IMG/VR virus record: IMGVR_UViG_2585427727_000016
From: a virus
Taxonomy: Duplodnaviria > Heunggongvirae > Uroviricota > Caudoviricetes
DNA: 36,583 bases
Direction: 5' to 3' (one strand)
Position numbers and translations under genes: made by a program. Shown here piece by piece: positions 1 through 27,684 of the stretch (within the stretch, counting starts at the first letter, position 1; each line of letters starts with the position of its first letter). The notes beneath the pieces were generated by a model. It saw nothing but the letters and a program-made list of their open reading frames with translations. It ran no database searches and was not told the origin of the DNA.

Positions 1-996
1 TTAACGAACCAGCCAGACCAGCATCAGGATAATCGCGACTAACAGTATCCACAGTGCGGGACGCGTTGCCATATTTTGCAACGTGTCCATCATCGGTGGA
101 AAAGGATTAAGCAGCGGTTGCATATCACGCGGATCAATCCCTTTAACCCGCCGTTGATAAAGCTGATTAAGAATATCCTCGGCCTGGGCAGAAGAAAGCG
201 ATGATTGCGCAGAAAGGCCATATTTTTGCTGGATATATGCCGATAACGCCGCCAGTTCACTGGCATCTAAAGGTTGTTTTAGCGCCATCTGTAGTGATTC
301 CAGTGTCGGCGTATTTTGCTGGCTTAGCGTCTGACGCGCCTGTAGCCAGGTCACCAGATGGTTAAACAGTTTCGCTGGAATTAACTCGCCATCTTTCACC
401 CCGGAAAGTTCCAGCATCGATTGCCAGATCTGCTTGCTGGGTTCCCCCGTTGCCGCCGCAAGTTTGATCACCAGCTGTTTAAGCGCATTGTGCTCCGCCG
501 GTAATAAAGGACGGTCGGTCGCCTCGCGCTGCTGCGGTTGCGGAATAACCATCTTCCCTTCCTGCAACAGGGTGAGAATTGTTTTTAATTGCTCCGGTGA
601 GAGCTGATTCAGCGGCGTCTGGCCAAAGTTATGACGGATATAATCCGTGACCGCCTGACGATTATTCCCCAGACGTAAATACTCCCCTAATTGCGCTAAA
701 AGCTGGCGGGCAGAATGGCTTTTTTGCGCGGCCAGCAGACGTTGCGCCAGATTGTGCTCAGCGGCAGGGAAGTGACGCGAAAGCAGCGGTGAATCTCCCG
801 ACAGACCAATATCGTGCCTGATACCCGCCCACAGTTCTGCTCTTTGCTGTTGCGTCAGTGAGGTCACTTTCGTCATTAAGCTTTCCAGCGAAGTACGTTG
901 CTGACTGGATAAAGGCTGATTGCCCGCGCCAGACGGCAGGTTATCTCCCTGACCTGGTGGTTGCCCAGGAGGAGGGCCGGAAATAGGTTGTATCAT
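1..996 (-). CDS. flk: flagellar biosynthesis regulator Flk (tail-anchored membrane protein); host gene
   Basis: 331-aa ORF with Pro/Gln-rich N-terminus and a single C-terminal hydrophobic anchor (ALWILLVAIILMLVWLV); AAGGA RBS before ATG at 996; recognised from memory as enterobacterial Flk. Confidence 0.75.
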   Translation of the reverse strand: MIQPISGPPPGQPPGQGDNLPSGAGNQPLSSQQRTSLESLMTKVTSLTQQQRAELWAGIRHDIGLSGDSPLLSRHFPAAEHNLAQRLLAAQKSHSARQLLAQLGEYLRLGNNRQAVTDYIRHNFGQTPLNQLSPEQLKTILTLLQEGKMVIPQPQQREATDRPLLPAEHNALKQLVIKLAAATGEPSKQIWQSMLELSGVKDGELIPAKLFNHLVTWLQARQTLSQQNTPTLESLQMALKQPLDASELAALSAYIQQKYGLSAQSSLSSAQAEDILNQLYQRRVKGIDPRDMQPLLNPFPPMMDTLQNMATRPALWILLVAIILMLVWLVR

Positions 997-1195
997 TACG
1001 TATCCTTATACCTGAAATCTTCGCAAGTATGCCTGGCCGCGAGATTATGGCACACTTGTCCGGTTAACTCTCGTCTCATACAGGTAACACAAACGTGAAA
1101 ATCCTTGTTGATGAAAAAGATGTTGATTTAACTTTTTGATATAAAAGGATTTGTATCGGCGCATGTCCACGCAGTGACCACATTTTCGAGTTATA

Positions 1196-1233
1196 GATAA
1201 CACAAAGCCCGTTTTCACGGGCTTTGTGTTATC
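1196..1233. terminator. perfect 16-bp-arm inverted repeat hairpin between the cargo operon and flk
   Basis: GATAACACAAAGCCCG-TTTTCA-CGGGCTTTGTGTTATC read directly; lies just downstream of the minus-strand ORF ending at 1246. Confidence 0.5.
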
Positions 1234-1245
1234 TGTGATTGTGGC

Positions 1246-2156
1246 TTAGCCGCATGATTTATACTGTTTCCAGTTACAGGCTTCTTGAAGCGGTTTTAGC
1301 GTGGTTGACAGGCCGTTTAAATTGAAAGTTGCACTTACAGGGCTTTCATTATAAGGGGTTATTTTTGCATACATTTTGTTTGAGTTGGCTAGTTTTCTGA
1401 TGAAGTTAATGTCATTGCCTTTATAAAAAACAGCCTTTGTATCTGTAGATACTAGCCAGTTTCGCTCAACTGCTTTCTGTTTATCAAGGCGATACAGCAT
1501 GCTGGTTTGTTCAAGGCCTAAATATACATCCCAATTAAGAAATACTTCGGTTTTCTTTTCTCGGCAAGCTATAAACAGAGTAGGGGTAACCGCTTCTCCA
1601 AATGGAGTTCTTATATAATCATCACTTTCTAACGATAAAATTACATTTTTCGAATCATCAATTGGCGATGTAGTAATGGATGTGTGCCATTTTCCTGTGT
1701 CTGTGGCTTTCTCTAATTTTGATTTAGATTGCGCAACTTTTTCCTGTGGAAATGGTTTATCGTAGCAGTTTACTCTAGTTTCTTTATCGTTTTCTGCTCG
1801 GCATTTAGATATCTCAGAAAGATTTGGTTGCTGAGCCTCTGTTGTTACTAGCTGTTTCGCTTTAGATTTTGAGCTTACAGGCGGAGTAAATGTTGGAGAA
1901 AAAAACGGTCATAACAAGATAAACGTCTGTCATCATCTTTCTCATCAGGGCATTGATCTCTGCTTTCGAATTTTTCAGCAACTGTCGTTCGAGTCGGTTG
2001 TATTGACTTATCATAACAAGAAAGTCTTTCTTTATTATTTTCTATTGCTCGGCACTGGAGTGATGACTTAAAGTTATTATGCTCAGTTGCTGCGTGAGCA
2101 GGTAGCACACTAATTGATATAAATGATGCACCTATAGAAATAATCATATTTTTCAT
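1246..2156 (-). pseudogene. secreted repeat protein with recurring C-x(n)-RLxCYD motifs, split by a 1-nt frameshift in a homopolymer
   Basis: ORF 1875..2156 has a signal peptide (MKNMIISIGASFISISVLPAHA) and stops just after a run of 7 T on the coding strand (1899..1905); the -1 frame is open with no start codon from 1908 down to 1246 and carries the same motif (RVNCYDK vs RLSCYDK/RLSCYDR). Confidence 0.5.
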
Positions 2157-2160
2157 TTTG

Positions 2161-2493
2161 TTATCCCTTTGGTTTAGTAAGAAATACTAAATTTCCGATA
2201 ATGATATTGCAAATAACCCATAAGCCTCCAATAGCAATTAAACCTAAGCCCGTACCAATAACTGTACCGGCTTTTTCGGCATCGGATGTGGCGTTGTTTA
2301 TTATTTCACCCACCTCTCTTAGCCCAACACAAATCGTGTAGATTATAAAAATATTAAATAATATGAAAAAATACTTAATGAGTTCTCCAAAAAATGAACG
2401 TTTAAGTTTTTTCAGTTGTTTGCCACAAGCAGGGCAAGACAATACTGAATCGATCACCTCTTTCTGGCATTCAGGACATTTGATTAATGCCAT
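2161..2493 (-). CDS. zinc-ribbon membrane protein (N-terminal CxxC...CxxC, two predicted TM helices)
   Basis: MALIKCPECQKEVIDSVLSCPACGK followed by two hydrophobic stretches; start taken at the internal Met; AT-rich; immediately upstream of the frameshifted gene on the same strand. Confidence 0.55.
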   Translation of the reverse strand: MALIKCPECQKEVIDSVLSCPACGKQLKKLKRSFFGELIKYFFILFNIFIIYTICVGLREVGEIINNATSDAEKAGTVIGTGLGLIAIGGLWVICNIIIGNLVFLTKPKG

Positions 2494-3001
2494 ATAATCT
2501 GCCTCCTTTGGCTCTCTACTAGCTGACGTTTGTAACAAAACATTTTGATTTTATCAGACTTTTTATTGATATGTGTCAATTGATTAGCTGGTATAGAGTG
2601 AGACAGGATGCCTTATCGACCTTACTCTGGCAACTGATTGACGGGGGATTGCTCCCCCGTCGCGGTTTCCTTACTGCTTACACTGTAAGAACGCCGCAAA
2701 CTCCGCTCCCCAGAAACTCATCCGTATTTCACACAGCGAACCGTGCAGCATCCAGATGATGAGGATTGCCGTCACGCAGAACGTGATGGCCGTAAGCGAT
2801 TTTTGCGACATAGCACTTGCTCCTTTTCCGGAGAGGCGCTAACCTTTCACTTGTCAAGGTAATGCGGTTAGGGCCTCGGTTAAACAGATATGTTTTCCGG
2901 GGCCTTTCCACATCCGGCCTTCGGGTATTCCCTCCGACCATCAGCCGAAAGGCACCCGCACGTAATCTATCGCTTTTTTGTTACTCCGGCAATTCTGCCT
3001 G

Positions 3002-3262
3002 TTAATTCTGAGGTAAAGGCAAACTCATCTGATTGTTTCCCCTGTGTGAAGCTGGCAGCTCATGCCACGGGATACCTTCTGATGAGTGAACGCCGGAGGC
3101 GTGTTTCGATGTGAATTTATGGAAAGCTTCCAGTGTTGAGAAGCATACGCCGCATTCCAGATTGTTACACTGGTAATACTTTTGCCGCACGGTGTTTGAA
3201 TCATTTTCCGGACGACTGGTGCGGATACGGGCAGATGCGCCACAAAGCGGACAACGGAACAT
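3002..3262 (-). CDS. ogr: late gene transcriptional activator Ogr/Delta (zinc finger)
   Basis: MFRCPLCGASARIRTSR...YYQCNNLECG: CxxC...CxxxxC pattern and N-terminal similarity to P2 Ogr; sits next to D. Confidence 0.85.
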   Translation of the reverse strand: MFRCPLCGASARIRTSRPENDSNTVRQKYYQCNNLECGVCFSTLEAFHKFTSKHASGVHSSEGIPWHELPASHRGNNQMSLPLPQN

Positions 3263-10317: not shown

Positions 10318-10881
10318 ATGCTGAATAATAGAGATATGAATATTAATGAACTTAAAGACTGTATTCACTATGAAGTAATCGGTAGCGAGCGTCCTTTCTC
10401 CTGGCGAAAGGCAATTGTTCGCGCAATAAAACATAGAAGACTTCGTTATTTATTTTGGTGGCGCATAGCCAAATACCTTTTTGATAAAGGCGGATACTGT
10501 CGGAAGATTGCGGGGAAAATAGAACGTTTCATTCTTGATAAATATAATGTAACAGTCCCTTTAACTGTAAATATAGGGAAAGGTTTTGATATTTCTTATC
10601 TCAACAGTGTTGTTATCGGTCACAAAGTAACAATCGGTGAAAATTGTTCAATAAAACCGGGGGTAACTATTGGGCTACGTGGTGATTTTAATGATATGGA
10701 TATTGTTATAGGACATAATGTGACCATTGGTTGTAATGCCACCATTCTTGGTGGCAAAGTGCGTATAGGAAACAATGTCACAATAGGTGCTCATGCATTG
10801 GTATTGCATGATATTCCTGATGATTCAACATTCATCACTAAATTTCAGTCTGAAGTTATCTGCTCGTCCTCCCGCACATAA
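10318..10881 (+). CDS. hexapeptide-repeat (left-handed beta-helix) acyl/acetyltransferase; cargo at the Z/fun position
   Basis: repeated [LIV]-G-x-x-x-x hexapeptides ([21 protein letters not shown]...[34 protein letters not shown]); strongly AT-rich compared with flanking phage genes; start codon uncertain. Confidence 0.7.
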
Positions 10882-26408: not shown

Positions 26409-26720
26409 TTACTCAGGAAATAACGCCCGGATATTCCCAGCCATCTGGCTGGTTATCTTAGCCACTGGTGCAGACTGTGCTTCAAACTTTTTTGAGCTGA
26501 TTTGTGTCACAGGTAACATCTCATCATCAGCCCATGCGGCCAGTCGGTAAGCCTCTGCCGGATTCGTCTTCAGAAGTGCCAGCCCGGCCAGAAAAGCCAC
26601 GCGTTGGCCGCTTTTGCGGGCTTCTGGTGTAAGGCTGTCCAGCCAGGCGCATGCTTCTCCTTCGTTCTTGACGGCAGCTGGCTTCAGATAGAAACTTATT
26701 CTTCTGGTTGGTGTCGTCAT
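26409..26720 (-). CDS. parR: ParR/StbB-like centromere-binding adaptor
   Basis: 103 aa; RISFYLKP...LDSLTPEARKSGQRVAFLAGLAL resembles the ParR N-terminal ribbon-helix-helix region as I remember it; AAGGAG RBS; 4 nt after the parM stop. Confidence 0.65.
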   Translation of the reverse strand: MTTPTRRISFYLKPAAVKNEGEACAWLDSLTPEARKSGQRVAFLAGLALLKTNPAEAYRLAAWADDEMLPVTQISSKKFEAQSAPVAKITSQMAGNIRALFPE

Positions 26721-26724
26721 TGGT

Positions 26725-27684
26725 TTACTCCTTGTTCATTGCGTACAGCCCATTAACCAGAGCAAAATGTGGCACCCCGTCCGTGATGAAAGTCGCATTA
26801 ACTCCGCAGGCTTCGCGGATAGCGGGTGCCACAATCTCCGCCCCTCCACCGACAACCATCACCCGCCCGTAACCGGAAAAACCCGCCAGCGCGCGGATCA
26901 CTCGTTGTTTCAGTGTCTCCTCCTTTTCACGAATAACCGCCATCAGGCTGTTGTAATGCGCGTCATTGTGAATGTGCTGGCGCAGCCAGGCTTCATCGTG
27001 ACGGTGCTCAATAATGGTATTGGCGATGTGGTGACTGGTACGCATACCGTTAGTGGCCATCACCGACAGCACGGCATCAGCCATCAGGGAAACGCCTACG
27101 TGTGGATCGCAAAACACCTGGCTGATACCTGCCAGCTGCCCCTGAACCTTTGCCACATCCAGCGTGGTTCCGCCCAAATCCACAATCAGCAGGGATTCAA
27201 ACGGACTCATGTCAGCCAGTGCCTTAAAGCCAGCCGGAATGGATTCAGGCATAACCCGCACGTTACGGATAGTGAATGCTTCGCCGTTCTGGTACTCCAC
27301 CGGGCGCATAACGTTCGCTTTTTTGCGGTTGATGTTGGCTATGTCCGGCTGTGCGTTTGTGTCGAAATACTCGCTCAGTGGCAGGGTGACAACCACATCC
27401 ACCTCCTGTGGCGTGATGCCTGATTTGACCAGCGCGTGATGAATGGCAATGACATTCACATCACTGTACTGGTATTGCGTGTCGGTCGTCTGGACAAAGC
27501 GATCGCTGACCGGATCAAAACCATAGCGCACGCCATCAAGCATGTAGTTCGCGGGCTGCGTGCCACCGAACGGCGCAGACCATTCCGACTTGAAGCTGTT
27601 CGGGCTGATGGCGTTGCGGCGTTCGCCGTTCTCAGTCCATGCCAGCTTGATGTTGGTGGAGCCGTCGTCGATACAAATTTTCAT
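26725..27684 (-). CDS. parM: ParM/StbA-family actin-like ATPase
   Basis: 319 aa; MKICIDDGSTNIKLAW...ISPNSFKSEW and YSDVNVIAIHHALVKSGI closely match the ParM N-terminal phosphate-binding motifs I remember from plasmid R1. Confidence 0.8.
   Translation of the reverse strand: MKICIDDGSTNIKLAWTENGERRNAISPNSFKSEWSAPFGGTQPANYMLDGVRYGFDPVSDRFVQTTDTQYQYSDVNVIAIHHALVKSGITPQEVDVVVTLPLSEYFDTNAQPDIANINRKKANVMRPVEYQNGEAFTIRNVRVMPESIPAGFKALADMSPFESLLIVDLGGTTLDVAKVQGQLAGISQVFCDPHVGVSLMADAVLSVMATNGMRTSHHIANTIIEHRHDEAWLRQHIHNDAHYNSLMAVIREKEETLKQRVIRALAGFSGYGRVMVVGGGAEIVAPAIREACGVNATFITDGVPHFALVNGLYAMNKE

Follow-up and report, generated by a model that had tools for sequence, protein, structure and literature searches.

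A frameshifted VasI/TagO-like gene in the att-proximal cargo of a P2-like prophage: a probable pseudogene formed by contraction of a T8 run

The window analysed here, a stretch of 36,583 nucleotides from an IMG/VR virus record (IMGVR_UViG_2585427727_000016; Caudoviricetes), includes, next to flk, the cargo operon at the att-proximal end of a P88/P2-like prophage (Peduoviridae) that lies between flk and pdxB. The second gene of this cargo encodes a VasI/TagO-like protein and is interrupted within a run of seven T residues, and it is very probably an ordinary heritable frameshift pseudogene that arose by homopolymer slippage, from which an adventitious trace of product may possibly still be made. 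The disruption is already known from public annotation, in which the gene is given as 'frameshifted' or as two split CDSs, and the split pair of 'hypothetical protein' and 'TagO' in about 40 RefSeq ETEC records is to be read as one frameshifted pseudogene.

The T7 run and the interrupted reading frame

The plus strand contains exactly seven A residues at 1899-1905, corresponding to T7 on the coding (minus) strand and marking the site of a 1-nt contraction from T8, which agrees with the first-pass annotation of the second gene as interrupted by a 7-nt homopolymer. Addition of a single T fuses the 5' ORF (1875..2156, minus strand) with the frame that stays open to 1246 and gives 303 codons, as the expectation of a restored frame of about 300 codons had it, and the full-length frame is not intact in the window allele, where the ORF ends after 93 aa. 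This 93-aa ORF includes the leader, two C..RLxCYD modules, eight out-of-frame codons and the stop, and the 3' two-thirds of the gene, comprising the third CYD module and the VasI/IalB-like domain, follow in the -1 frame (1246..1898, minus strand), which is open throughout; the chance of 210 open codons at the local GC content is p ~4e-7. The first ATG, GTG or TTG of the downstream frame is found at 1500 (codon 133) without a Shine-Dalgarno sequence, and the separate downstream CDS in the PGAP annotation has an ATA start, also without a Shine-Dalgarno sequence. As the VasI domain is left out of frame, with neither a start codon nor a signal peptide, the gene is regarded as a pseudogene. The two-gene unit is AT-rich, as had been described, with a GC content of 0.32-0.39 vs about 0.50-0.55 in the flanks.

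Downstream of the shift, the window allele also shows derived changes, namely a Leu to Pro substitution and replacement of the stop by Gln. The latter results from a TAG to CAG change at 1264-1266, where all other members of the family have a stop codon after ...CxWK, so that the stop is displaced by 18 nt and the ORF gains six codons, to 1246. The plasmid copy shows Cys to Tyr within a CYD motif. Such changes past the frameshift would be compatible with relaxed constraint, which the very few substitutions are insufficient to demonstrate in a statistical test.

The homologues of the repaired protein exhibit a uniform organization. Among 5.8 billion proteins searched, 85 homologue clusters were recovered from Enterobacterales (Escherichia, Klebsiella, Raoultella, Enterobacter, Salmonella, Pectobacterium, Dickeya and Pantoea), and each of them is a single protein. 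Leaving aside obvious partials or fragments, nearly all measure about 206-319 aa and contain between one and three CYD modules. The few 'partial' E. coli clusters of 201-219 aa are C-terminal pieces of frameshifted alleles, and all 31 aligned homologues (31/31) end in ...CxWK-stop. Intact single genes of 297 aa with T8 were found in E. coli MB06101, NCCP 15734 and IHE3034 and in the phages 500465-2 and P88_4B11, and the phages Shae_phiSM and PhiR44_2 also carry an intact single gene of 297 aa, with TTTCTTTT at the run. The homology search of the fused protein, which the first-pass annotation had proposed, thus gave single-protein VasI-family homologues together with a Pfam VasI match, and the suggestion that the homologues might be two separate genes did not hold. 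Of the options offered at the outset, the pseudogene is the one supported, since every homologue that is intact consists of one gene in frame throughout, in which the run is either T8 or broken.

According to the proposed course of events, the ancestral T8 run would be an incidental feature of an AT-rich gene, formed by the codons TTT TTT TCT (Phe-Phe-Ser), from which one T would have been lost in this prophage lineage, most likely by replication slippage. Translation would then end after 93 residues, with the zinc-ribbon gene remaining intact and with probable loss of function of the VasI/TagO-like gene.

Run length among alleles and the alternative readings

The length of the run was compared among strains, as had been recommended, and a T7/T8 polymorphism was observed. 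Among 5426 complete E. coli genomes probed with an 86-nt probe, 237 carry the gene, and T7 is present in 44 of these (about 19%). Exact window-type T7 was found in 41 records, nine of which are ETEC plasmid remnants, and three further T7 records (504211, H1 and DEC5A) have the other main allele background (group-B flank). About 40 alleles were read directly and contain only T7 or T8, and T8 in most of the other 193 genomes was deduced from match identity and span. The 27 IMG/VR loci comprise ten with T8, nine with TTTCTTTT, six with T7 and two with TTC TTC, the last being relatives (L039 and L041) of 61-66% identity; both TTTCTTTT and TTCTTC are synonymous breaks of the run. In the neighbour-joining allele tree, T7 is distributed over three distinct clades, each with T8 alleles as sisters, which implies no fewer than three independent contractions among the E. 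coli alleles. The T8 run is regarded as a mutational hotspot. PGAP flags 504211 and DEC5A as 'frameshifted'. The DEC5A pseudogene has 892 nt compared with 893 nt in 504211, which implies a second 1-nt deletion elsewhere in the DEC5A gene and suggests further decay after the contraction of the T run. Copies on ETEC virulence-size plasmids were also observed: L014 (p120899_146, NZ_CP025917.1, about 129.3-132.0 kb) and eight others carry a prophage remnant consisting of the att-side end, the frameshifted TagO-like gene, the zinc-ribbon gene, hok, ogr and a truncated D, which adjoins a group II intron.

The recurrence of the contraction and the commonness of T7 (about a fifth of the carriers) could reflect selection for switching or inactivation instead of neutral decay, and one alternative is that the T7/T8 run acts as a contingency locus, in which replication slippage reversibly turns a lysogenic-conversion protein ON and OFF. 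The length polymorphism that changes the frame, the three or more independent length changes seen in the allele tree and the frequency of the T7 allele point in this direction, and exported envelope proteins in phage cargo are a typical phase-variation class. Nevertheless, phase variation of this kind is unlikely. The run is short (7-8 nt), whereas a length of 9 nt or more is usual in classical homopolymer switches, and it is not conserved, being replaced by TTTCTTTT in the nine IMG/VR loci, which form a sister clade, and in two phages, and by TTC TTC in distant homologues. The H1-H30 chromosomes, about 30 in number and with at least 99.9% identity over 1.7 kb, all have a T7-length span with no revertant, and T7 is found in nine of nine plasmid copies, so ON and OFF states were not found together among these near-clonal isolates. 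Only T7 and T8 occur in the roughly 40 directly read alleles (the remaining genomes were typed by match identity and length), and the window allele has further derived defects downstream (the stop loss and Leu to Pro). The slippage-controlled switch entertained by the first-pass annotation is therefore disfavoured, as neither the run nor the two-frame layout is conserved, a stimulatory structure is lacking and the roughly 30 chromosomes are all T7.

A more elaborate form of this idea would make T8/T7 a low-frequency contingency switch by which lysogens toggle a periplasmic VasI-like protein, produced along with its zinc-ribbon membrane partner, that modulates how the envelope interacts with contractile injection machines, with slippage on T7 providing a 'standby' level, and it is accorded a very small probability. 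If true, the contractile machines concerned would be those of T6SS attack or of superinfecting myophages, and the 'standby' product of T7 slippage would be the exact wild-type protein at a low level.

Programmed recoding, that is, -1 ribosomal frameshifting (or transcriptional slippage) on U_UUU_UUU that sets a fixed ratio of the 93-aa and full-length products, is likewise most improbable, although several features of the site resemble those expected. The zero frame reads CG[U UUU UUU]CUC at the run, an X_XXY_YYZ heptamer in the correct phase, so the earlier recognition of a U_UUU_UUU -1 slippery site was accurate; a -1 shift on the T7 run yields R-F-F-S-P-T-F, exactly as in the intact protein; and a zero-frame stop follows eight codons past the run. 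Sharma et al. 2014 (PMC4066793) report that a stimulator makes H_HH.U_UU.Y motifs efficient in E. coli, that U_UU.U_UU.U shifts at >0.1% even when unaided by stimulators, and that E. coli genes avoid UUUUUUU. The 89 nt downstream of the run have a folding energy of -12.6 kcal/mol (z = -0.49 vs shuffles), indicating no significant RNA structure there, and the 25 nt upstream contain no GGAGG-like (Shine-Dalgarno-like) stimulator. The 7-nt run is also below the length of about 9 nt at which bacterial transcriptional slippage has been described (PMC5009743). Programmed frameshifting was rejected on the lack of downstream structure and on the two-frame layout, which is not conserved, most homologues being in frame. 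The programmed -1 sites of IS elements, dnaX and the phage tail chaperones (P2 E/E') share with the window site the phased X_XXY_YYZ heptamer and the early zero-frame stop, whereas the window site lacks a stimulator, its layout is not conserved and its trans-frame product is the ancestral protein.

For the favoured frameshift pseudogene, an adventitious -1 ribosomal or transcriptional slippage on U7 that gives a trace of wild-type protein is plausible, and given the unaided frameshifting of >0.1% (PMC4066793) and the wild-type nature of the -1 product, the T7 gene may not be fully null. Such leakiness is treated as an adventitious by-product, following the usage of Atkins et al. 2016 (PMC5009743). 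The closest likeness is to homopolymer frameshift pseudogenes and to the 'savior indel plus compensatory frameshifting' known from the G-run of HSV thymidine kinase, with which a one-base change in a run of 7-8 nt is shared; as in the savior-indel concept (PMC5009743), the shift-prone run remains and could give a trace of full-length product. In contrast to the savior-indel cases, no sign of selection on the loss or on residual expression was seen here.

A sequencing or assembly error, with T8 as the true sequence, is highly improbable. Homopolymers are error-prone on long-read platforms, and the three group-B T7 records are scattered singletons. Against this, identical T7 is shared by 41 RefSeq records that originate from many laboratories and span many years, including chromosomes and nine plasmids, the same allele recurs in five IMG/VR contigs, six IMG/VR contigs of separate isolate genomes have T7, T7 is also found in two other allele backgrounds, and the T7 alleles form coherent clades with other SNPs in common; an error, which the first-pass annotation had allowed for, is excluded by so many independent identical assemblies. 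The weakest reading, two separate genes for a small secreted CYD-repeat peptide and a VasI-domain protein, follows the two CDSs ('hypothetical protein' and 'TagO') given by PGAP in many T7 genomes and is practically ruled out by start codons and homologues, since the downstream CDS would begin at ATA with no Shine-Dalgarno sequence, the frame is devoid of ATG, GTG or TTG for 133 codons, no signal peptide would be present on the product in spite of the conserved Cys pair of the domain, and homologues outside the T7 alleles are all one protein.

The VasI/TagO-like protein and its zinc-ribbon neighbour

The repaired protein matches Pfam VasI (PF11319) with E = 1.7e-23 and 83.7 bits (cut-off 26.5) over profile positions 1-184 of 184, the match spanning residues 118-296, and it also matches phrog_1848; its score against NCBIfam TIGR03360 (71.8 bits) is under the equivalog cut-off of 124.2 bits. 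It contains three 'C-x(n)-R[LV]xCYD' modules, and its eight cysteines can plausibly be arranged as four pairs. The 93-aa ORF already includes a hydrophobic leader at its N-terminus and two C..RLxCYD motifs, in line with its initial description as a secreted CYD-repeat protein. The AlphaFold2 model of a 90%-identical intact protein exhibits a disordered leader, three helical hairpins that correspond to the CYD modules and are joined by low-confidence linkers, and a confident beta-sandwich at residues 156-297. The C-terminal domain has an IalB-like beta-sandwich fold. The fold search matched only IalB and a flagellar ring component, neither of which gives a biochemical function, and a PDB sequence search returned nothing useful. 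The intact product would thus be pictured as an exported, disulfide-rich VasI/TagO-family protein with three helical 'C..RLxCYD' modules and an IalB-like beta-sandwich.

Differences were observed from the VasI/TagO of T6SS (PF11319, TIGR03360; V. cholerae VCA0118 and E. coli T6SS-2 tagO), in that the prophage protein misses the TIGR03360 equivalog cut-off, has one to three tandem CYD modules and is paired with a zinc-ribbon membrane protein, and its gene adjoins att, between att and hok/ogr, outside any T6SS cluster. The relatives P0048 and P0067 have the same prophage context and also lie outside T6SS clusters. TagO/VasI function is listed as unknown in a 2026 review (PMC13584744), and functional data on phage VasI-like proteins were not found in the literature. 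As a two-gene system, the phage version could offer a tractable way into VasI/TagO function, to which the frameshift itself adds nothing.

The preceding gene (2161..2493, minus strand) is intact and encodes a zinc-ribbon membrane protein of 110 aa with two TM segments (Pfam Zn_Ribbon_1, phrog_6586). Its CPEC..CPAC motif, its hydrophobic segments at about residues 33-62 and 75-106 and the Pfam match all conform to the earlier description of a zinc-ribbon membrane protein. It is preceded by a strong AAAGGAGG Shine-Dalgarno sequence, and no consensus sigma-70 site was found upstream of it. The zinc-ribbon gene is separated from the VasI-like gene by 4 nt, the same spacing as in the distant homologues L039, L041 and L046 (Klebsiella), and the two genes probably form one operon. 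Just 3' of the VasI-like gene, a perfect 13-bp inverted repeat with a 6-nt loop (1199..1230) is a possible terminator as read from the sequence; the hairpin has no T-tail, and the terminator scan made no call at this position.

The VasI-like protein is likely to be exported or periplasmic, and a disulfide-bonded envelope protein with a small inner-membrane partner would constitute a lysogenic-conversion module, for which one may speculate on a role in the exclusion of contractile injection devices. A known anti-phage defence system was set aside on the PADLOC search, which gave no significant match for the VasI-like protein, the zinc-ribbon protein or Hok.

Position within the prophage and phage relatives

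The unit had been placed between flk and the prophage, and this placement was not borne out: it belongs to the prophage and not to the chromosome flank, lies inside the att boundary and is also carried by phage genomes. The window starts with flk (1-996, minus strand), and the flk-side boundary of the prophage is the 20-nt att core AAAATCCTTGTTGATGAAAA (1098..1117), a direct repeat that emerged when the region was compared to the K-12 empty site and to the int-proximal end which the same prophage has in strain M9682-C1. The core recurs at the int/pdxB end of the sister prophage L005, the flk-pdxB empty site of K-12 is collinear as far as 1117, beyond which it passes into the pdxB side, and the plasmid-borne remnants begin at about 1097. 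Because the core is at 1098-1117, the two-gene unit falls inside the prophage. A 13-mer at 1163-1175 was the first guess for att and was dropped for the 20-nt core after the K-12 empty-site comparison. The overlapping 18-mer TGTCCACGCAGTGACCAC (1163..1180) contains a repeated GTG(T/A)CCAC motif and recurs nearly identically as TGTCCACGCAGTGTCCAC at the other, int-proximal prophage end in L005, where it overlaps the int stop; the two are probably arm-type binding sites of the integrase, to judge from this arrangement.

The unit is present in the genomes of the Peduoviridae phages 500465-2, P88_4B11 and PhiR44_2 and of Citrobacter phage Shae_phiSM, all of which share the block TagO-like / Zn-ribbon / hok / ogr / D, and in P88_4B11 the block directly follows int/attP. 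In P88, Chuche and 520873 the match begins only at hok/ogr, and as P88 is devoid of the two genes, these represent variable, att-proximal cargo. Location within the att boundaries, occurrence in packaged phage genomes, variable presence and deviant base composition characterize the unit as a moron. The neighbouring cargo includes a Hok/Gef (MokW-like) toxin ORF (2671..2811, minus strand; phrog_251, E = 1.3e-22, and RefSeq annotation in H1), and the conserved phage backbone starts with the ogr/Delta-like late-gene activator (3002..3262, minus strand), identified from the RefSeq annotation of the identical locus and the ORF list. The Hok ORF is situated between the zinc-ribbon gene and ogr, with a GC-rich hairpin (2639-2662) just downstream; it represents a hok/sok-type module of the phage cargo, which is found in P88 and in Stx phages as well, with ~83% identity. 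What looked like an inversion of the tail genes with respect to D/ogr proved to be the normal P88-like gene order.

The copy in PhiSM was listed as a 'T6SS VasI family protein' and putative virulence cargo gene by Magaziner et al. 2019 (PMC6456863). PhiSM ORF1 of this Citrobacter rodentium phage is the same gene at the same att-proximal position as the window copy, with about 93% DNA identity over a ~2.2-kb query spanning the two-gene unit. In contrast to the frameshifted window copy, the PhiSM copy is intact, and the run of the PhiSM copy, broken as TTTCTTTT, hence cannot slip in the same way.

These genes represent a phage-specific VasI-family clade, usually preceded by a zinc-ribbon/2-TM protein, in an ogr-adjacent, att-proximal slot of P2-like prophages of E. 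coli, Citrobacter and Klebsiella. VasI-like proteins with one or two CYD modules fill the slot beside ogr in other P2-like prophages, such as L042-L044 (E. coli, tamB/ytfP site), where the neighbour gene encodes a TM2-domain protein in the opposite orientation, and L045-L047 (Klebsiella, fieF/pfkA site), where the neighbour encodes a Zn-ribbon/DrpB-like protein and the VasI-like gene comes after it. The P2 hotspot paper (PMC9122126), in which the term 'ogr' is absent, offered no lead for the ogr-att slot.

Other variable genes were observed elsewhere in the window. The ORF at 10318-10881 (plus strand), another moron, is the counterpart of a 'serine acetyltransferase' cargo gene annotated in L005, where that gene is flanked by the tail-fibre assembly gene and the block of tail genes. 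At 26409-27684 (minus strand), in a variable region between portal Q and replication A, a ParM/StbA-like ORF of 319 aa is followed by an ORF of 103 aa, and the two may form a partition module of the P2-like prophage, judged by eye from the sequence and the PhiSM annotation.
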